A DNA stretch of 64,000 nt, from the UHGV virus genome UHGV-1351569. One strand, written 5' to 3'. Position 1 is the first letter of the stretch; each line of letters starts with the position of its first letter. The position numbers were made by a program, and so were the translations under genes. The notes under the pieces are model-generated. The model worked only from the letters and a program-made list of their open reading frames with translations, did not search any database and was not told the origin of the DNA. The DNA is from a virus. Positions 17,752 to 57,159 of the stretch are shown one piece after another.

Positions 17752-18392
17752 TGAATTATCAAAAAATTTATAACGACCTAATTTCCCGAGCTCAGGCTCG
17801 GGAACCTTTATCCGAATATAAAGAGACTCATCATATAATCCCTAGATGTATGGGAGGTTCTGATGATAAAGAAAATTTAGTTGAATTAACAGGTAGAGAG
17901 CATTTTATAGCTCATTGGCTTTTATGCAAAATATATGACACCCCAGGATTAAAGAAAGCTTTTGGTTTAATGTGCTTGACTGGTAAAAATCGCTCATATA
18001 AAATTTCTTCTCAACTATACGAATTAGGTAGACGACGTTTATCTGAAGCTGCTATAGGACGTGAAGTTTCTATAGAAACCAGGGAAAAGATAAGTAGAGC
18101 TCTTAAAGGAAGGAAATTTACCAAAGAGCATTTAGCTCGCATGAGAAAACCTAAAACCGAAGAAGCTAAAAAGAATATAGCTGCTGCTAAAGTCGGCGTG
18201 CTTAATCCGATGTATGGTACAATCTCTCCGACAAGAGATGTTCCTCATACTAAAGAAACTCGTGATTTGATTTCTTTGAGAACTAAGCAAAGTATAGAGT
18301 ATCCGCCTTGTCCGCATTGTGGCAAGAAAGTTAATAAAGGCAATGCTCTAAGATGGCATTATGATAAATGTAAATTTAAGGATTCTAAATGA
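17751..18392 (+). CDS. mobE: HNH homing endonuclease, MobE-like
   Basis: 213 aa; ETHHIIPRCMGGSDDKENLVELTGREHFIAH (HNH motif) plus repeated basic NUMOD-like motifs; sits between nrdA and nrdB as T4 mobE does. Confidence 0.8.
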   Translation: MNYQKIYNDLISRAQAREPLSEYKETHHIIPRCMGGSDDKENLVELTGREHFIAHWLLCKIYDTPGLKKAFGLMCLTGKNRSYKISSQLYELGRRRLSEAAIGREVSIETREKISRALKGRKFTKEHLARMRKPKTEEAKKNIAAAKVGVLNPMYGTISPTRDVPHTKETRDLISLRTKQSIEYPPCPHCGKKVNKGNALRWHYDKCKFKDSK

Positions 18393-19567
18393 GTACAGTT
18401 TTTAATACATCCCCTGTTAATATTTTGACTGAGCCGATGTTTTTTGGTTCTGGATTGGGTTTAGCTCGATATGATATTCAACGGCATAGAGTATTTGAAG
18501 AACTTATTGAGAAATCTTTATCATTTTTCTGGCGTCCTGAAGAAGTAAACTTGATGATGGATGCTGCACAATTTAACAAGCTTCCTCAGTATCAGCAAGA
18601 TATTTTTACTAATAACCTGAAGTATCAATCACTTCTAGATAGCATTCAGGGTCGTGCACCGTCTGCTGTACTTATGTCATTAATTTCAGATCCAAGCCTT
18701 GATACGTGGGTTGCTACATGGACTTTTAGTGAAACTATTCACAGTCGTTCATACACTCATATCATGCGTAACCTCTATACAGACCCATCTAAGGTATTTG
18801 ATGAAATTCTGTTAGATGATGCAATTATGAAACGCGCCGAATCCATTGGTCGTTATTACGACGATGTTATTGAGAAAACACGTGAATGGGAAAATGCTAA
18901 AGAAATTTTTAAATGTTTTTCCGAAAATGAATATGATTTGGATGCATATTCAAATAGTCTTATGCATGTGGAAGAATGTAAACGTGCATTAATGAAATCT
19001 CTTTACCTCTGTTTGCATGTAATCAACGCATTGGAAGCTATTCGTTTTTATGTATCTTTCGCATGTACCTTTAACTTCCATAAGAACATGGAAATCATGG
19101 AAGGTAATGCCAAGATTATGAAGTTCATTGCACGTGATGAGCAGCTTCACCTTAAAGGTACCCAATATATTATTCGTCAGCTTCAATCCGGTACTGATGG
19201 TGATGAATGGGTTAAAATCGCCCAAGAGTGTGAACAAGAAGCAGTTGATATTTTCATGGAAGTTAACCGCCAAGAAAAAGATTGGGCAGTTCATTTATTT
19301 AAAGATGGTGATGTTCCTGGATTAAATACAAATAGCATGTGGAGCTTTATTGATTACTTAACCGTATCTCGTATGAAACAGTGCGGTCTTCCATGCCCAA
19401 TTACCGATGCTCCGGTTAAACATCCGTATCCTTGGATTCGTGAATATCTTAATTCTGATAATGTTCAATCCGCACCACAAGAAGTAGAACTGTCATCTTA
19501 CCTTGTAGCACAGATTGATAATGATGTTGATGATAAAGTTATGATGAGTTTTAAAAAATATTTTTAA
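18389..19567 (+). CDS. nrdB: ribonucleotide reductase small subunit, uninterrupted
   Basis: 392 aa contiguous ORF; di-iron ligand region (...ETIHSRSYTH...), C-terminal acidic tail. Confidence 0.95.
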   Translation: MSTVFNTSPVNILTEPMFFGSGLGLARYDIQRHRVFEELIEKSLSFFWRPEEVNLMMDAAQFNKLPQYQQDIFTNNLKYQSLLDSIQGRAPSAVLMSLISDPSLDTWVATWTFSETIHSRSYTHIMRNLYTDPSKVFDEILLDDAIMKRAESIGRYYDDVIEKTREWENAKEIFKCFSENEYDLDAYSNSLMHVEECKRALMKSLYLCLHVINALEAIRFYVSFACTFNFHKNMEIMEGNAKIMKFIARDEQLHLKGTQYIIRQLQSGTDGDEWVKIAQECEQEAVDIFMEVNRQEKDWAVHLFKDGDVPGLNTNSMWSFIDYLTVSRMKQCGLPCPITDAPVKHPYPWIREYLNSDNVQSAPQEVELSSYLVAQIDNDVDDKVMMSFKKYF

Positions 19568-19594: not shown

Positions 19595-21182
<1,588 letters not shown>

Positions 21183-21185
21183 GCT

Positions 21186-21215
21186 GTTTACAAGTCCCTC
21201 GTGTTGTGTTATAGT
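21186..21215 (+). promoter_or_regulatory. T4-type early promoter upstream of alc
   Basis: GTTTAC 21186-91, TATAGT 21210-15; followed by a leader able to pair CCTC...TGTTAT with ATAACA..GAGG around the SD. Confidence 0.5.
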
Positions 21216-21246
21216 AGTCTTACTGACATAACATGAGGACTTTATG

Positions 21247-21750
21247 ATGGATTTGCAGCTTATTACTACTGAAATGGTCGTTGAAGCATACGGTGATACT
21301 ACAGATGGGATTTCTGTATTCAAAGGAAATCGTCGAGTTGGATATATCACCGATCTTAAGAAAGATTTAGCTAAGCAAGTCAAGCGGAAAACGACCATTA
21401 AAGAATATCGAAATCGTCGTCTTGAGCAAGCCCGTGATATGCTTCCTGATGCGGTTGAAGAGATGAAAGTCTTTTTAGAAAATCAACTCGCTAAGTATGA
21501 TTGTGAAGTGTTCATTAATCAGACTCAACCTAATGTTCATATCAATAATTGCAAATGCTACATCATCGTTAATCCTTTGACGGGAAAACATCGTCTTGGA
21601 ATTAGTAATCCAAATCGTAGTGCATCGGATATGGCAGAAGATGTTGAGGCATGCTTTAAAATTTCTAAATCTCCGGCTGAACATCATATTTTAATTAACG
21701 GTCTTTCTCAAGATGATATTATAGAGGTTATTAAAACTTTATGCAATTAA
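21247..21750 (+). CDS. alc: Alc, inhibitor of host transcription on cytosine-containing DNA
   Basis: 167 aa MDLQLITTEMVVEAYGDTTDGISVFKGNRRVGY...; follows gene 63 as in T4. Confidence 0.9.
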   Translation: MDLQLITTEMVVEAYGDTTDGISVFKGNRRVGYITDLKKDLAKQVKRKTTIKEYRNRRLEQARDMLPDAVEEMKVFLENQLAKYDCEVFINQTQPNVHINNCKCYIIVNPLTGKHRLGISNPNRSASDMAEDVEACFKISKSPAEHHILINGLSQDDIIEVIKTLCN

Positions 21751-24488: not shown

Positions 24489-24518
24489 GTTTACTTTACG
24501 GTAGAGTTGTGATATTAT
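24489..24518 (+). promoter_or_regulatory. T4-type early promoter with embedded inverted repeat
   Basis: GTTTAC 24489-94, TATTAT 24513-18; inverted repeat GGTAGAG (24500-06)/CTCTACC (24521-27) spans the -10. Confidence 0.5.
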
Positions 24519-24548
24519 AGCTCTACCAAAACAAATGAGGAAATTGAA

Positions 24549-25076
24549 ATGAGCGAATGGTTTGAAGAAGATAAGGTTTATCGCTTTAAAGCTGGATATA
24601 AAGATATTTTTAATGAAACTTGCGGGGCTAATAAACGAATTGCCCAGTTTATTGGGGAAAATTCATTTAAAGTAAAAATAGATCCTGCGAAAAATGTTAT
24701 TAGCATTAAACGCGAAATTGATGATTGTTGGTATAAAGCTGTTGATGTAATGGGTGAATCCTATAAAGTTAGCCCGTTATTTTCAATTGCTTATATGTTA
24801 GAATATTCTTTTTTCGAAGAAGTTCAAAAAGATGATTCTGTCAGTAAATTTGAAATTAAATCTGATAAAGAAATTAAGTGGAAAGTAGTAGGTATTACTG
24901 GTTGTATGTTTTATATCTATGCTCAAACTGATACGAAGGAAGAAGCTAAAAAGAAAGCTCTAGAATATCTTGAAGAGTATGAAGAAGGTCCGGTAATGAT
25001 TACTCAAGATGCTGAATTAGTTTCTGTCAAATTAGTTAAAAATGTTGAAAGTAAGGAGCTGGGATCAACATGCTAA
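24549..25076 (+). CDS. hypothetical protein
   Basis: 175 aa ORF with SD GAGGAAA before ATG. Confidence 0.7.
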   Translation: MSEWFEEDKVYRFKAGYKDIFNETCGANKRIAQFIGENSFKVKIDPAKNVISIKREIDDCWYKAVDVMGESYKVSPLFSIAYMLEYSFFEEVQKDDSVSKFEIKSDKEIKWKVVGITGCMFYIYAQTDTKEEAKKKALEYLEEYEEGPVMITQDAELVSVKLVKNVESKELGSTC

Positions 25077-27848: not shown

Positions 27849-27853
27849 GTTGA

Positions 27854-27882
27854 GGACTCCTTCGGGAGTCCTTTTTTATTTT
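27854..27882 (+). terminator. rho-independent terminator
   Basis: GGACTCC-ttcg-GGAGTCC followed by TTTTTTATTTT. Confidence 0.85.
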
Positions 27883-27903
27883 CCAAAGATTGCACAAAGT
27901 TGT

Positions 27904-27933
27904 TTACAGTATGGTTCCTTTGTGATAGTATTA
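27904..27933 (+). promoter_or_regulatory. T4-type early promoter
   Basis: GTTTAC 27904-09, TGTGA-TAGTAT at 27928-33. Confidence 0.45.
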
Positions 27934-27958
27934 TCTTACACAAACAAAGGAGAATAAA

Positions 27959-28291
27959 ATGAAAACGATTAATCTGAACGCTACAGTTAAAACTAAATGC
28001 TTCAATGGTAAATATGATGAAACTATGTGGTTCTTAATGGCAGTTGAAGGTGATATTATTGAAGTAGAAACAACAGAAGGTATGGGAACAGATTTCACCT
28101 TTACAATTCAAGTTCATAATTTCTTTACTGGTTGGATTTATGAATTGAATACAGTAATCGTTGGAAAAATTGAACAAAATGAATTGGGTGAATGGTATTA
28201 TGTTACAGCTCGCCAACGTGCCGAACGCTTAATTGAGAAGATGAAAAAAGTTGGTAAACTTGACATGCAACATTGGAAAGTAGTAAAATAA
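27959..28291 (+). CDS. hypothetical protein
   Basis: 110 aa ORF with SD AAGGAGAA. Confidence 0.7.
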   Translation: MKTINLNATVKTKCFNGKYDETMWFLMAVEGDIIEVETTEGMGTDFTFTIQVHNFFTGWIYELNTVIVGKIEQNELGEWYYVTARQRAERLIEKMKKVGKLDMQHWKVVK

Positions 28292-28312
28292 TTGTTTACT
28301 TTGGTACAGGAT
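28284..28312 (+). promoter_or_regulatory. T4-type early promoter with embedded inverted repeat
   Basis: GTTTAC 28284-89, TATTAT 28307-12; inverted repeat GGTACAGG (28293-300)/CCTGTACC (28316-23). Confidence 0.5.
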
Positions 28313-28359
28313 ATGATATTATATACCTGTACCGCAATTAAACATCTTGGAGAATAAAA

Positions 28360-28725
28360 ATGAACTACATCAACTTTGAACGTAAATATGTTTCTAACGG
28401 TATTGCAGGTTCTATTGATACTATCTGCCTTTGGAAACATCAAAATGGATCAGTATGCGAAATTGAACAGTATATGACTCCTAACTACGTTTATATGCGA
28501 TTTGAAAATGGCATCACGGTTTCAATCACGAAAGAAGGTTCTTCTTTTAAAATCGCATTAGATGATGATTTTCGTCAACGCGATTTGGGGACTCATCCTT
28601 GCTGGAATGGCGTTAATCGTAAACTTCTAGTTAAAACTTGGATTCGTCACATCCTGAGCAACCGAGCTAAACCTGAGCATCTTGAAGCAATCTTTGATGT
28701 AGTTCTTAACGAATTTGATATTTAA
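28360..28725 (+). CDS. hypothetical protein
   Basis: 121 aa ORF with SD GGAGAA. Confidence 0.7.
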   Translation: MNYINFERKYVSNGIAGSIDTICLWKHQNGSVCEIEQYMTPNYVYMRFENGITVSITKEGSSFKIALDDDFRQRDLGTHPCWNGVNRKLLVKTWIRHILSNRAKPEHLEAIFDVVLNEFDI

Positions 28726-28764: not shown

Positions 28765-29052
28765 ATGTTTATGACTACTTATTTTGATACCCGCAAAAAT
28801 TTCTGTGAAGTGGTTTTCTCTAAGGCGCCTAAAGACCTTCCTGCTCATTTGCAGCCTACCAGTGAATCGATTAAAAACTACGTTAATGTAGTATGTCCTT
28901 TAGAGTTCCGTACTGTAAATGGACGTGATACTCTAGCAATCATTAAACTCAATCGTGAAATTGACATTGATCCTTCAATTGCGCGTGAAATTAACATTTC
29001 TGACATTGGCGGAGGTAATGTTAAATCACATGGCTTTCAGATGAGGTTTTAA
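28765..29052 (+). CDS. hypothetical protein
   Basis: 95 aa ORF, SD GAGGAAAA. Confidence 0.65.
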   Translation: MFMTTYFDTRKNFCEVVFSKAPKDLPAHLQPTSESIKNYVNVVCPLEFRTVNGRDTLAIIKLNREIDIDPSIAREINISDIGGGNVKSHGFQMRF

Positions 29053-29249
29053 TGAAATTCTTTTTAGGTCAAACTGTTGAATTAAAGGGAGTTGGTATAC
29101 CTGGATTAATTTCTAAGGTTCTACCTCCATTTAAATGGAGTGGTATTCAAATAAAAGAGGCTTATATTGTTTCCTGGGTAGATGGAAATGAAGACCTTCG
29201 TATGGGCGATGAATTATCTCCTATCTATGGATTAAAGGAATTAGTATGA
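29052..29249 (+). CDS. hypothetical protein
   Basis: 65 aa ORF. Confidence 0.6.
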   Translation: MKFFLGQTVELKGVGIPGLISKVLPPFKWSGIQIKEAYIVSWVDGNEDLRMGDELSPIYGLKELV

Positions 29250-32690: not shown

Positions 32691-32717
32691 AATAGAATAA
32701 ACACTAGAGAGGATATG

Positions 32718-34811
32718 ATGGAACTCATTACAGAATTATTTGACGAAGATACTACTCTTCCGATTACAAACTTAAATCCAAAGAAGAAAATACCACAAAT
32801 TTTTTCAGTTCATGTTGATGACGCAATTGAACAACCAGGCTTTCGTTTATGTACCTATACATCTGGAGGTGATACTAATCGCGATTTAAAAATGGGCGAT
32901 AAAATGATGCATATTGTTCCTTTTACATTAACTGCTAAAGGTTCAATTGCTAAATTAAAAGGTCTCGGTCCAAGCCCAATTAATTACATCAATTCAGTTT
33001 TTACTGTTGCGATGCAAACAATGCGTCAGTATAAAATTGATGCTTGTATGCTTCGTATTCTTAAGTCTAAAACCGCTGGTCAAGCTCGACAAATTCAAGT
33101 TATTGCTGATAGACTTATCCGTAGTCGTTCAGGTGGCAGATACGTCCTTCTTAAAGAACTCTGGGATTACGATAAAAAGTATGCATATATTCTTATACAT
33201 CGCAAAAATGTATCACTAGAAGACATTCCAGGAGTTCCGGAAATTAGTACCGAGCTCTTTACTAAAGTTGAATCGAAAGTCGGCGATGTTTATATCAATA
33301 AAGATACTGGAGCTCAAGTAACTAAAAATGAGGCAATTGCAGCATCTATTGCACAAGAAAATGATAAACGTTCTGACCAAGCTGTTATTGTTAAAGTTAA
33401 AATTTCCCGTAGAGCAATTGCGCAAAGTCAATCATTAGAATCTTCTAGATTTGAAAGCGAATTATTCCAGAAGTATGAATCTACTGCAGCTAATTTCAAT
33501 AAACCTGCTACAGCTCCTTTAATTCCCGAAGCAGAAGAAATGAAGCTTGGAATTAATTCATTAGCTTCTAAAACTAAGGCAGCAAAAATTATTGCCGAAG
33601 GAACCGCAGATGAACTTCACTATGACTATAAATTCTTTTCAAAAAGTGAGGTTAATGAAGTTTCTGAAAAAATTAAAGATGTAATTCTTAATGCGATTAA
33701 AAATGAACCAACTACTTCAATAAAATGTTTAGAGAAATACGCAGCAGCTGTTAATCAATTATTTGAAGAATATAAAGATAATTGGCTTGATAAACATAAT
33801 AAAACCCGTAAAGGACAGCCAGATGAAGTCTGGGAAGAAATGACTAAAAATTCCTGGAACGCAGCAAAAACTAAATTCCTCAAAAGAATGATTTACAGCT
33901 TTTCTGGAATTGGTGCAGGTCCAATGATTGATATTACTATTGCTCGTGATGGTTCTAAATATACTCCATCACAAAAGCGCGGCATTAGAGAGTATTGTGG
34001 TTCAGGATATACTGACATCAATAATCTTCTTTTGGGTCGTTACAATCCAGAACGATATGATGTAATGAGTGAAAAAGAAATTGAATCTGCTATAAATAAC
34101 TTAGATTCAGCTTTTGAAAATGGTGACCGTATACCAGAAGGCATTACAGTTTATCGTGCTCAAAGTATGACTGCTCCTATATACGAAGCACTAGTTAAAA
34201 ATAAAGTGTTCTATTTCAGAAATTTTGTATCTACTTCTTTAACTCCTATCATTTTTGGACGTTTTGGAATTACACATGCTGGTATTGGTCTTTTAGAACC
34301 AGAAGCTCGTAATGAATTAACAGTTGATAAAAATGAAGAAGGAATAACTATTAATCCAAACGAAATAAGAGCGTATAAAGAAAATCCTGAATACGTTAAA
34401 GTTCAAATAGGATGGGCAATTGATGGAGCTCATAAAGTTAATGTTGTATATCCAGGAAGTCTCGGAATAGCAACAGAAGCTGAAGTTATTCTACCACGCG
34501 GATTGATGGTCAAAGTTAATAAAATAACTGATGCTTCTAATAATGATGGAACAACATCTAATAATACAAAACTCATTCAAGCTGAAGTTATGACTACGGA
34601 AGAACTCACCGAATCAGTAATTTATGACGGTGACCGTCTAATGGAAACTGGTGAAGTAGTTGCAATGACAGGTGATATTGAAATAGAAGACAGAGTTGAC
34701 TTTGCATCATTTGTTTCATCAAATGTTAAACAAAAAGTAGAATCATCTCTTGGAATTATTGCATCTTGCATAGATATTACAAACATGCCTTACAAGTTCG
34801 TTCAAGGATAA
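32718..34811 (+). CDS. alt: Alt-like ADP-ribosyltransferase (capsid-packaged)
   Basis: ATG 32718 gives 697 aa MELITELFDEDTTLPITNL...; C-terminal motifs ...VYRAQ, FVSTSLTP, TEAEVILPRG (R / S-T-S / E-x-E). Confidence 0.9.
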   Translation: MELITELFDEDTTLPITNLNPKKKIPQIFSVHVDDAIEQPGFRLCTYTSGGDTNRDLKMGDKMMHIVPFTLTAKGSIAKLKGLGPSPINYINSVFTVAMQTMRQYKIDACMLRILKSKTAGQARQIQVIADRLIRSRSGGRYVLLKELWDYDKKYAYILIHRKNVSLEDIPGVPEISTELFTKVESKVGDVYINKDTGAQVTKNEAIAASIAQENDKRSDQAVIVKVKISRRAIAQSQSLESSRFESELFQKYESTAANFNKPATAPLIPEAEEMKLGINSLASKTKAAKIIAEGTADELHYDYKFFSKSEVNEVSEKIKDVILNAIKNEPTTSIKCLEKYAAAVNQLFEEYKDNWLDKHNKTRKGQPDEVWEEMTKNSWNAAKTKFLKRMIYSFSGIGAGPMIDITIARDGSKYTPSQKRGIREYCGSGYTDINNLLLGRYNPERYDVMSEKEIESAINNLDSAFENGDRIPEGITVYRAQSMTAPIYEALVKNKVFYFRNFVSTSLTPIIFGRFGITHAGIGLLEPEARNELTVDKNEEGITINPNEIRAYKENPEYVKVQIGWAIDGAHKVNVVYPGSLGIATEAEVILPRGLMVKVNKITDASNNDGTTSNNTKLIQAEVMTTEELTESVIYDGDRLMETGEVVAMTGDIEIEDRVDFASFVSSNVKQKVESSLGIIASCIDITNMPYKFVQG

Positions 34812-34814
34812 ATC

Positions 34815-36872
34815 ATGGAACTTATTACAGAATTATTTGACGGCGCTTCGGCGCCGGTTGTTAACTTAAATCCTAAGCATAAAATACCTCAAATTTTTGC
34901 TATTCAAGCCGGCGAAGAAAGTGTGCTTCCTGGATTTAGATTTTGTACATACACCTCTGGCGGTGATACAAATAAAAACGTTAAGCCAGGCGATAAAATG
35001 ATGCATATCGTAATGATAGGTGTCAATGAGAAACTGTCATTAGTTAAACTTAAAAACTTGGGTGGAAATCCAATTGGTGTCATTAATGCGGTTTTTGATA
35101 CTGCTCTTCAAACAATGAAACAGTATAAAATTGACGCATGCCTATTACGCGTACTAAAAAGTAAAACAAATGGCGCAGCTCGTCAAATGCAAGTTATTGC
35201 TGATCGTTTAGTACGTACTAAAGGAGCAGGTCGATATGTTCTTTTAAAGGAAATCTGGGATTACGATAAAAAGTATGCATATATTATGGTTTACCGTAAA
35301 AATGCCAATTTAGAAGACATTCCAGGTGTACCTCCTATTTCAACTGAGTTATTCACAAAAGTTGAATCAAAGGTTGGTGATGTTTATGTAGATGTTAAAA
35401 CAGGTAATGCTGTTCCTAAAGCTGTTGCTGTTGCTGCTTCTATTGCTTTAGAAAATGATAAGCGCACGGATCAAGCTGTTATTCAGAAAACTAAAATTAG
35501 TCGTCGATTAGCAGCACAAGCTCAATATTCTACTGTCGATGCTTCACTTCAGGGCGATAGCTTCGCTGCCAAGAAATATCAAGAGTTTGAATCTAAAGTT
35601 CCGGTATATAAAGCAGAAGGACCAATGAACTCTGGTGTTATTCAGATTGGTTCAAACTTCGGCAAAGGAGCTATCGGTGGTATGAGAAGTGCTTCTCGTT
35701 TTAAATCTAACGATTATGAACTAGAAAGCTTCCGAAATCATATTGCATTGGCCCATGCACGTTTACGTGATCCATCTATCAAGCTGCAGAGCGATATAAC
35801 ATATCAAGGTTCTCAAGAATATTTAAAGAATAAAGAATTCTTTGATTATAAAACCGATAAAATTTTAAGCGATCTCGCTGACATTAATATTTCTAATAGC
35901 TTTGATGTTATTAAGAAAATTATCAATGATTTAGTTAAAGGTTCTAAAGCCACGCCAGACGAAAAAGTAGCTATTATTCAATTTGTCATGAATAGCATTT
36001 ATAAATTGATTAATGAATCTGCTGCTCAGGCATATGAATACGCAAGCACCGAAGTAACTCCAAAAGGACTGACTCAGGCTGAGTCTGATGTAATTGAAGA
36101 TTATTGTGCAGATTCATATGTTGAAATGAACTCGTTCCTCCTGGGTAAACCAGATTCTACCCGTGAAGAATACATGGAACGAGCTATTAAACACATTGAG
36201 ACAATGGATTCTGCCTTTGCCAAAGGTTCAGTTCTTCCTCCAGGAACTACGCTTTATCGTGGACAAGAAGTTACCTTTAAAACTTTACGCCATAATATTG
36301 AAAATAAAATGTTCTATTTCAAGAACTTCGTATCAACATCGCTTAAACCAAATATCTTCGGTGAGCATGGTAAAAACTATATGGCTCTAGATGATTCCGG
36401 TGCAGTATTTTCTGGTGAAGGAGAAGGTTCTGTTGATGCTGAAGATTTAATGCATATGGGTAGTCATTCTGCATATGCTAATGAAGATGCTGAAACTAGC
36501 GTGGGTATGGTAATAAAAGGAGCTGAGCGAATTAAAGTTATCGTTCCAGGTCATTTATCAGAATTTCCATCAGAAGCTGAAGTTATTCTACCACGTGGAA
36601 TTTTGTTGAAGATTAATAAAGTAAGCACGTACATGATGAAAGAAACTGCTTATAACAAGTATTTAATCGAAGGCACAATCGTTCCTCCTTCTGAACAATT
36701 AGAAGAATCGGTATATGATGGCGATCATCTGATGGAAACTGGTGAAGTTCGTCCAATGGCTGGATTTAATCAATTCCTTGTAGAAGAATCAAAAGAAGAG
36801 GAAAACGAAGTTTCTCAAATCTTGGCTTCTTTGGTTAACATCAACGGAATGTCTAAAAAGTTCAAAATGTAG
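34815..36872 (+). CDS. second Alt-like ADP-ribosyltransferase paralog, intact
   Basis: 685 aa MELITELFDGASAPVVNL...; N-terminal ~230 aa and C-terminal motifs (TLYRGQ, FVSTSLKP, SEAEVILPRG) shared with upstream alt; central region divergent. Confidence 0.85.
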   Translation: MELITELFDGASAPVVNLNPKHKIPQIFAIQAGEESVLPGFRFCTYTSGGDTNKNVKPGDKMMHIVMIGVNEKLSLVKLKNLGGNPIGVINAVFDTALQTMKQYKIDACLLRVLKSKTNGAARQMQVIADRLVRTKGAGRYVLLKEIWDYDKKYAYIMVYRKNANLEDIPGVPPISTELFTKVESKVGDVYVDVKTGNAVPKAVAVAASIALENDKRTDQAVIQKTKISRRLAAQAQYSTVDASLQGDSFAAKKYQEFESKVPVYKAEGPMNSGVIQIGSNFGKGAIGGMRSASRFKSNDYELESFRNHIALAHARLRDPSIKLQSDITYQGSQEYLKNKEFFDYKTDKILSDLADINISNSFDVIKKIINDLVKGSKATPDEKVAIIQFVMNSIYKLINESAAQAYEYASTEVTPKGLTQAESDVIEDYCADSYVEMNSFLLGKPDSTREEYMERAIKHIETMDSAFAKGSVLPPGTTLYRGQEVTFKTLRHNIENKMFYFKNFVSTSLKPNIFGEHGKNYMALDDSGAVFSGEGEGSVDAEDLMHMGSHSAYANEDAETSVGMVIKGAERIKVIVPGHLSEFPSEAEVILPRGILLKINKVSTYMMKETAYNKYLIEGTIVPPSEQLEESVYDGDHLMETGEVRPMAGFNQFLVEESKEEENEVSQILASLVNINGMSKKFKM

Positions 36873-36901
36873 TTTACAAGTTCCTCGTGTTGTGTTATAA
36901 T
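36872..36901 (+). promoter_or_regulatory. T4-type early promoter; near-duplicate of the alc upstream cassette
   Basis: GTTTAC 36872-77 (overlapping the alt paralog stop), TATAAT 36896-901; about 85% identical over ~55 bp to 21186-21240. Confidence 0.5.
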
Positions 36902-36932
36902 AATTTTACTTACATAACATGAGGAACACAAA

Positions 36933-37223
36933 ATGAAATCTTCTTTACGCTTTTTAGGTCAAGAACTTGTAGTTGAAGGCGTTATTCCTGCTGATAATGC
37001 TTTTAATGAAGCAGTTTATGATGAATTTATCAAAATTTTTGGAACAGATAAAAAGTTCGGAATTTTTCCTTCTGAAAATTTTTCAAAGCCAGAACAGACT
37101 GAAAGTATTTTCCAAGGTGTAGTAACAGGTAAATTTGAGTCAGAAGCTCCGGTAAAAATTGAAGTTTATATTGAAGACAGTTTAGTTGCTTCAGTTGCTG
37201 CTTTTATTTCATTCCGTAAATAA
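36933..37223 (+). CDS. hypothetical small protein with N-terminal capsid-targeting-like sequence
   Basis: 96 aa MKSSLRFLGQELVVEG...; SD GAGGAA; adjacent to head-packaged alt genes. Confidence 0.7.
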   Translation: MKSSLRFLGQELVVEGVIPADNAFNEAVYDEFIKIFGTDKKFGIFPSENFSKPEQTESIFQGVVTGKFESEAPVKIEVYIEDSLVASVAAFISFRK

Positions 37224-37227
37224 AAAT

Positions 37228-37249
37228 ATGGGGACCGAAAGGTCCCCAT
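37228..37249. terminator. bidirectional hairpin terminator between convergent genes
   Basis: ATGGGGACC-gaaa-GGTCCCCAT; T-rich on the minus-strand side and moderately so on the plus side. Confidence 0.75.
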
Positions 37250-56912: not shown

Positions 56913-57159
56913 TATTCATCATCCTCGTCTTCGTCATCTTCGTCAGAGTCTTTGTCTTTTTTGTCGTCTTTATCGTCACTATCTTCGTCTTCGTCATCAT
57001 CCTCGTCTTCAGGTTCTTCACCTTCGATTAAGAAATTACGAGCGATAGCGATTTTTTCTTCTTTAATTAAATCAATCGTTCTTGCAGCCATGGCTTCAGC
57101 AAATAATTTACGAGCGGCTACGAGGTCGTTTGATTTAATAGCTTCAATTAAACCTTCCA

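Follow-up and report, generated by a model that had tools for sequence, protein, structure and literature searches.

Among T4-type phages, the PeSL (promoter-early stem-loop) is a cassette made up of an upstream stop codon, an AT-rich tract, an early promoter, a stem-loop, a Shine-Dalgarno sequence (SD), and a start codon (Arbiol et al. 2010, PMC2839356; Comeau et al. 2014, PMC4122927). The stem-loop lies mostly between the -35 and -10 elements or over the -10, and it has been read as a terminator or attenuator (PMC2839356; PMC4122927). In the PST/T4 pair, the strong, sigma-70-like promoter of the PeSL follows the pattern TTTACW-N17-TAYWAT.

Another set of T4 leaders acts on translation. In the available text of a 2010 review (PMC3014915), the genes e, soc, 49, I-TevI, I-TevII, I-TevIII, mobE, and segB are described as having their SD, their AUG, or both sequestered in a helix in long transcripts. 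Transcripts from the genes' own promoters, which do not contain the 5' strand of the helix, are translated, and the same text states that the structure is kept in relatives. In addition, the internal-protein genes of T-even phages are flanked by repeated promoter and leader segments that serve as exchange points (Repoila et al. 1994, as cited in PMC4122927).

Here we analyze a 64,000-nucleotide stretch of the virus genome UHGV-1351569 (the window), in which a short promoter-leader segment occurs ahead of alc and again ahead of alt.-3. We describe the repeat, its predicted promoters and fold, and its conservation, and we weigh what the segment may do.

Results

Two copies of a -35-to-Shine-Dalgarno segment

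A preliminary description of the window reported a near-identical cassette of about 55 bp at two sites. The repeat and its coordinates stand, although the identity is higher than the roughly 85% given there: the copies form a 54-nt unit that is identical, without gaps, at 49 of 54 positions (91%), or at 49 of 55 if the next base is counted. The gene context given there, ahead of alc and of a small alt-adjacent ORF (open reading frame), also holds, and that ORF is alt.-3. The local features are as follows.

21180-21182, plus strand: stop codon of rnlA (gene 63), 3 nt ahead of copy 1
21186-21239, plus strand: cassette copy 1, in the rnlA-alc intergenic gap; T4 has the same sequence
21247-21750, plus strand: alc coding sequence (Pfam PF17527, ALC; E 2.5e-91)
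34815-36872, plus strand: second full-length alt paralog, an ADP-ribosyltransferase by its Pfam domain, with its stop codon at 36870-36872; its transcripts run into copy 2
36872-36925, plus strand: cassette copy 2; it begins on the final base of the TAG that ends the second alt paralog
36933-37223, plus strand: alt.-3 (96 aa; Pfam DUF5498), the last early-strand gene ahead of the convergent gene 54
37228-37249, no strand assigned: bidirectional terminator-like hairpin at which the unit ends, past alt.-3

The plus strand of the window is the early-gene strand, and the T4 record has the same gene order, with nrdB, denA, rnlA, alc, and pseT.3 onward around copy 1 and alt, alt.-1, alt.-2, alt.-3, and the convergent gene 54 around copy 2. 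The T4 annotation starts alc at the second of two ATG codons (21247), and an in-frame ATG also lies at 21244. The homologous stretch runs from the G of GTTTACA to GAGGA, and the DNA flanking the two copies is unrelated; the unit is therefore exactly the segment from the -35 to the Shine-Dalgarno sequence. When we scanned the whole window with the first 28 nt as the query, allowing up to 3 mismatches, only the sites at 21186 and 36872 were recovered, and 0.00 sites were expected from shuffled sequences (n = 100).

The window belongs to Tequatrovirus, the genus of T4, and both regions are 97-98% identical to hundreds of Tequatrovirus genomes. T4 itself has both copies, identical to each other at 53 of 54 positions, and in one metagenomic Tequatrovirus (loci L064 and L065) the two copies are identical at all 54. 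A blastn search found the segment at 999 places in 500 GenBank phage records, all of them Tequatroviruses, with two places per complete genome; across these approximately 500 genomes, the two loci are those before alc and before alt.-3. An exact-pattern scan of IMG/VR returned only 7 stretches; every one sits at one of the two known positions, and the scan gave no third genomic context for the cassette. At alt.-3, the window has an unusual haplotype: 432 of the 500 GenBank records fall in a 90-95% identity band to this copy (the T4-like haplotype), and none of the 500 is at least 99% identical to it.

Copy 2 adjoins a variable alt duplication, which is full length in the window and present as the remnants alt.-1 and alt.-2 in T4. 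The window has tandem full-length alt paralogs at 32715-34811 (698 aa) and 34815-36872 (685 aa), with DNA stretches that are 72-94% identical; at the position of the second, T4 has only the short remnants, besides one alt. Between the convergent alt.-3 and gene 54, the hairpin at 37228-37249 is a perfect, GC-rich stem of 9 bp (ATGGGGACC-GAAA-GGTCCCCAT) that looks like a terminator on both strands.

Several other features of the window's gene content were observed in passing. The N terminus of a 65-aa open reading frame (ORF) at 29052-29249 (MKFFLGQTVELKGVGIP) resembles that of Alt.-3 (MKSSLRFLGQELVVEGVIP), with 71% DNA identity over 34 nt, and by sequence the two may be distant paralogs or alike by chance. 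The ORF at 18389-19567, presumably nrdB, is a single unbroken frame of 392 aa just upstream of the probable denA and rnlA. The T4 nrdB is split by an intron; in the entire window, Rfam detected no family and hence no group I intron. The imperfect short direct repeats at 56916-57022, such as TCATCATCCTCGTCTTCGTC, are spaced by multiples of 3 and are probably a low-complexity acidic stretch coded on the minus strand.

Predicted early promoters

Each copy contains a near-consensus early promoter of the extended -10 type, as had been claimed from the -35/-10 pair, and a promoter stands at the same position before alc in many genera. This assignment is based on sequence, and the elements are as follows.

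21187-21215, plus strand: early promoter of copy 1 (-35 TTTACA at 21187-21192; 17-nt spacer; TG at 21207-21208; -10 TATAGT at 21210-21215; 10 of 12 matches, with the TG)
36873-36901, plus strand: early promoter of copy 2 (-35 TTTACA at 36873-36878; TG at 36893-36894; -10 TATAAT at 36896-36901; 11 of 12 matches, with the TG)

Both fit the T4 early-promoter pattern of a -35, TGn, and a -10 (PMC2988021), and both are within the top three sigma-70 matches of an 18-kb scan. From the spacing, we infer transcription starts at A21222 (copy 1) and A36908 (copy 2). The -35, the -10, and the spacing between them are kept in 30 orthologous alc leaders, and in one GenBank record (NC_054924.1) the site homologous to the alt.-3 copy is annotated "promoter." The searchable literature yielded no mapped start sites, RNA-end data, expression data, or described leader structure for alc or alt.-3, although an older description may exist, and the T4 omics literature that we examined does not treat the two cassette sites.

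A predicted hairpin joins the promoter spacer to the Shine-Dalgarno sequence

We folded each leader both as read-through RNA and as RNA started at the cassette promoter. In the minimum-energy structures of the read-through RNA, the arms are as follows.

21192-21210, plus strand: 5' hairpin arm of copy 1, within the promoter spacer, with C21198 bulged
21225-21242, plus strand: 3' hairpin arm of copy 1, including the alc SD, GAGGA, at 21235-21239
36880-36895, plus strand: 5' hairpin arm of copy 2 (16 bp, with no bulge)
36912-36927, plus strand: 3' hairpin arm of copy 2, including the alt.-3 SD, GAGGA, at 36921-36925

Each hairpin thus pairs the promoter spacer, as its 5' arm, with a 3' arm that contains the SD, leaving the -10 and the predicted +1 in the loop. 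The loops are large (14-25 nt), and the stems are rich in AU and GU pairs. Read-through RNA folds with a dG of -24.4 (copy 1) and -23.5 kcal/mol (copy 2), which is below dinucleotide shuffles (z of -3.7 and -5.8, respectively), while the promoter-started leaders are no more structured than their shuffles (z of +1.0 and +1.8). Because the spacer, and with it the 5' arm, precedes the -10, any start at the cassette promoter leaves this arm out. The predicted probability that the SD is unpaired is 0.00 in read-through RNA of both copies and approximately 0.5 in promoter-started RNA (0.54 for copy 1). The preliminary description had proposed a stem that buries the SD in read-through transcripts and leaves it free in promoter-proximal ones. 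Folding agrees with both the burial and the freeing, but the stem is 16-18 bp long, not 10.

We also looked for signs of other RNA elements. The terminator scan called no terminator-like site at or before either cassette, or between rnlA and alc, and nothing in the whole window matched an Rfam family at the gathering score. An intrinsic terminator was considered for the hairpins and rejected: no T-run follows them, their tails being CTTTATGATG and ACACAAAATG, and they lack the GC-rich, short-loop form. To decide on which strand the structure forms, we also compared the stability of the sense and antisense strands, since a G.U asymmetry would prove a sense-strand RNA structure. The sense strand is favored by 8-9 kcal/mol in Tequatrovirus, where alone the comparison is informative; across genera it was null (sense favored in 14 of 30; p = 0.75).

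The predicted alc hairpin is maintained with different sequences across genera

For comparison, we used alc loci of ten other GenBank genera together with 42 loci taken from IMG/VR. Almost everywhere, rnlA and alc are separated by 57-64 nt, and in Gaprivervirus an extra ORF is inserted between the two genes. The alc leaders of Gelderland-, Karam-, Jiaoda-, Moon-, Braga-, Dhaka-, and Winklervirus have the same order of GTTTACA, 5' arm in the spacer, -10, and 3' arm; the 3' arm contains GGAG or GAGG, and an ATG follows after 4-9 nt. The arm sequences themselves differ by genus (TCTCCGTTTAGTT/AACTAAACGGAGA, TCCTCATCAG/CTGATGAGGA, and ACCTCTCATTTTT/AAAATGAGAGGT).

Because a plain MAFFT alignment of the leaders left the 3' arms out of register, we assessed the pairing with an alignment-free partner-swap test and with a covariance-model alignment, and we report the former alongside the latter because the latter is fitted to its model. 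For the partner-swap test, we took 30 unique leaders and drew foreign partners from leaders whose spacer differed at 5 or more positions. The mean duplex energy was -16.6 kcal/mol with a leader's own partner and -8.5 kcal/mol with foreign ones, and the own partner was better than every foreign partner in 22 of the 30 leaders. The covariance-model alignment, which leans toward the structure it was built on, covered 33 unique alc leaders, hairpin-less ones included, and had 80.7% of its cells paired, versus 38-54% when the 3' partner was slid and 61.6 +/- 1.9% (maximum, 69.4%) when partners were permuted; in the same alignment, 12 of the 13 pairs showed double-sided changes. Across the 30 leaders, the median predicted probability of an unpaired SD was 0.00 in read-through RNA (below 0.1 in 21 of 30) and 0.65 in promoter-started RNA. 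On these comparisons, the predicted SD-pairing hairpin at alc is conserved by compensatory change.

Some alc leaders depart from this pattern. Mosigvirus and the loci L050 and L052 have a small hairpin within the spacer only, L049 has none, and in L031, L037, and L048 a hairpin over the -10 ends short of the SD. Given that several alc leaders have no SD pairing, the device must be dispensable or replaceable. In addition, upstream of the extra small ORF of Gaprivervirus (L023, L024, L051, and L005) lie a terminator-like hairpin, a TGTACA-17-CATAAT promoter, and, over the ORF's own SD, a short hairpin (GGTTCCATCA / TGATGAGGACC).

The alt.-3 site and an apparent cassette exchange

We examined the alt/alt.-3 gap in eight other genera, with a comparison set drawn from Gapriver-, Dhaka-, Mosig-, Marfa-, Karam- (two phages), Kanagawa-, and Kagamiyamavirus. 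The gap is approximately 58-60 nt and contains GTTTACA and then a -10, and the spacer has a small internal hairpin of the CACCACAAGGATGTGGT type with no pairing to the SD. Given this different promoter in eight genera, the Tequatrovirus alt.-3 cassette is not the sequence ortholog of the promoter at that site. From these sequences, it looks like an alc-type cassette that was copied in, and at alc the geometry of this cassette is ancient. We infer that the alc copy is ancestral and that copying ran from alc to alt.-3, in which case the tract from the -35 to the SD at alt.-3 would have been replaced by the alc version within the Tequatrovirus lineage. The -35 and the SD, which all these cassettes have in common, are the likely edges of the exchanged tract. 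This matches PeSL exchanges, for which crossovers were shown to lie between the -10 and the SD (PMC2839356).

The repeat had been proposed as a dispersed substrate for recombination, and the apparent replacement at alt.-3 is evidence of such an exchange in the past. A crossover between the two direct copies would remove 15.7 kb, including genes 31 and 30; conversion, not deletion, is therefore the realistic outcome. We also observed that in Mosigvirus the alc (L035) and alt.-3 (L057) promoters are alike, with GTTTACAAACAC, a small spacer hairpin, and TATCAAYAACAYGAGGA, and that both belong with the spacer hairpins rather than with those that pair with the SD. This likeness in sequence hints that the alc and alt.-3 loci swap cassettes in more than one genus.

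Hairpins at other early promoters in the window

Inverted repeats over early promoters are common in the window, and those that reach the SD are a subset of them. One further member of this subset lies before gene 30.8.

27902-27961, plus strand: third early promoter-leader, before gene 30.8 (Pfam Phage_30_8), a covariance-model match of 31 bits

This leader shares the cassette geometry, with the SD of gene 30.8 (ACAAAGGAG) pairing with the spacer sequence UUCCUUUGU (dG, -12.1 kcal/mol), but its arms are unrelated to those of the alc cassette. The Dhakavirus ortholog of gene 30.8 keeps a complementary pair (UCUCCGGU / ACUGGAGA), and its minimum-energy fold does not use the pair; evidence for spacer-SD pairing in orthologs of gene 30.8 is suggestive only. 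The stretch 27852-27961 also contains a canonical terminator (GAGGACTCC-TTCG-GGAGTCCTT and a T-run) approximately 30 nt ahead of the gene 30.8 early promoter.

Other early promoters, at 24489-24551 and 28294-28362, read GTTTACT and then TATTAT and carry tight hairpins of 12-16 bp centered on the -10. The first of the two is the counterpart of the T4 early promoter between cd.2 and cd.3. The hairpins at 24489 and 28294 end near the +1, short of the SD, with a dG of -16.3 and -19.4 kcal/mol and a z of approximately -3.7 and -3.9, and they are PeSL-like. Since these hairpins make no contact with the SD, part of the selection on such structures serves something other than SD masking.

Discussion

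We favor, with moderate confidence, the interpretation that the cassette is an early-promoter unit of the PeSL kind that works as a translational gate. Each copy would be a self-contained cassette for early-gene expression, with a strong extended -10 promoter for host RNA polymerase with sigma-70, in which the 17-nt spacer is complementary to the ribosome-binding site approximately 30 nt downstream. Early, middle, or late read-through RNA from rnlA or alt would contain both arms, and the SD of alc or alt.-3 would be hidden. RNA from the cassette promoter would begin inside the loop, without the 5' arm, and its SD would be free. Under this model, probably only RNA begun at the cassette promoter is translated, which would limit synthesis of Alc and Alt.-3 to the first minutes of infection and would insulate both genes from read-through transcription.

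The middle promoters of T4 that lie upstream of alc include PI-TevIII (138939), PnrdB (139878), PnrdA, and Ptd, and those upstream of alt.-3 include P30 and P30.2 (PMC2988021, Table 1). With middle promoters upstream and no intervening terminator in the window, long RNAs are expected to enter both cassettes. The virion carries packaged Alt, and late transcription of alt is therefore also presumed.

The published reading of PeSL stem-loops suggests a different role, in which the hairpin, as a terminator or attenuator, would mainly stop or reduce transcription arriving from rnlA or alt, its overlap with the SD being secondary. The cassette has the PeSL layout of upstream stop, promoter, stem-loop over the -10, SD, and start; one PeSL stem-loop reduced lacZ read-through as strongly as rrnB T1 (PMC2839356); and hairpins over the -10 that stop short of the SD do exist at 24489 and 28294. 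The cassette hairpins, however, lead into CUUUAUGAUG and ACACAAAAUG rather than a T-run, the corresponding tails are A-rich in other genera, and the terminator scan calls nothing at either copy. Their AU- and GU-rich stems and 14-25 nt loops are unlike the polyG/polyC stems of PeSLs, and the 3' arm tracks the SD across genera. We consider this role unlikely as the main one, and it could coexist with gating. An element for RNA processing or stability, which would protect the 3' end of the upstream message or offer a nuclease site with no role in translation, would account for a stem this long and stable where the upstream coding region ends and for hairpins at other early promoters. It gives no reason for the 3' arm to be the SD in most genera despite the cost of a large loop, and we regard it as highly improbable. 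The loop also bears on the choice of target: because it is long and costly, and because a terminator or stabilizer would be better served by a compact hairpin such as those at 24489 and 28294, we favor the SD as what the hairpin acts on.

In every genus, the upstream stop codon lies within 0-4 nt of the -35, which places it 7-12 nt from the first paired base. This could instead point to translational coupling, in which the hairpin would hold the SD closed until a ribosome finishing rnlA or alt melts its base, and alc and alt.-3 would be translated from read-through RNA at a level proportional to translation of the gene upstream. Judging from the coordinates, a ribosome footprint of approximately 10 nt past the stop would open only 0-3 of the 16-18 pairs, so a ribosome that terminates 7-9 nt upstream would be unlikely to expose the SD. 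The close spacing may merely reflect the tight packing of T4 genes, and coupling leaves a strong promoter inside the hairpin unexplained; we judge it rather improbable. Finally, most Tequatroviruses have two nearly identical copies, as would be expected if a promoter had recently been duplicated along with an inverted repeat of no selected function. Yet both copies are kept in approximately 500 genomes, the pairing is kept with different sequences, double-sided changes affect 12 of 13 pairs, and own partners outperform foreign ones. We rejected a chance or incidental repeat on the basis of this covariation of pairing across genera, and we give it almost no credence.

If the translational gate works as proposed, T4-type phages would be applying the trick of the lysozyme gene at the start of infection and would give a gene a strictly immediate-early window even though read-through transcription continues. 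Since Alc shuts off host transcription in T4, the timing of its synthesis is basic to the takeover program. With a working gate, the promoter/stem-loop cassettes that are widespread in T4-type phages would gain a second role, beyond termination. The leader of alc, conserved and covarying, offers a clean candidate for a new family of cis-regulatory RNA. A broader proposal, which we put forward tentatively and hold to be possible but doubtful, is that spacer-SD hairpins are general, conserved translational insulators in Straboviridae (at alc, alt.-3, 30.8, and others) that would let immediate-early genes be translated solely from RNA of their own early promoters, regardless of middle or late read-through; that the -35-to-SD unit is mobile by conversion, with the common -35 and SD motifs as its edges; and that PeSL stem-loops, until now regarded as terminators, are at least partly gates.

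The cassette resembles the repeated segments of Repoila et al. (1994) in being a short repeated regulatory segment between early genes, a likeness drawn from the citation in PMC4122927, which describes no SD-masking hairpin for them. Like PeSLs, both copies are bounded by an upstream stop and a downstream SD and start, and both have a sigma-70-like promoter (TTTACA-17-TATAAT in copy 2 and, with one mismatch, TTTACA-17-TATAGT in copy 1, the -10 in each following a TG). By count, the 40 nt upstream of the -35 are approximately 75% (copy 1) and 70% (copy 2) AT, and these tracts are coding sequence. Like PeSLs, the cassette is repeated in the genome and tied to replacement, as seen in the alt duplication and in the different alt.-3 promoter of eight genera. 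A stem that overlaps the -10 is a described PeSL class. None of the five reported stem-loop positions, however, extends to the SD, nor do they include a stem that joins spacer and SD around a loop containing the -10 and +1, and translation is not discussed for them (PMC2839356; PMC4122927). Unlike PeSLs, the cassette has an SD as its 3' arm, AU- and GU-rich stems with no T-run, and two copies per genome, and the alc cassette stands among conserved genes with a structure conserved by covariation across genera.

Neither alc nor alt.-3 is in the list of gated genes in the available text of the 2010 review (PMC3014915), and an earlier mention elsewhere is possible. With the gates of e, soc, 49, and I-TevI, the cassette shares the predicted pairing of the SD in long RNA, a promoter of its own between the arms, and a structure conserved in relatives. 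Those T4 gates have late (TATAAATA) or middle and late promoters, which delay translation to the late period, whereas the cassette has an early promoter (-35, TG, and -10) that would limit translation to the earliest period. In our model, the cassette would thus join the layout of a PeSL and the mechanism of gene e with an early promoter.
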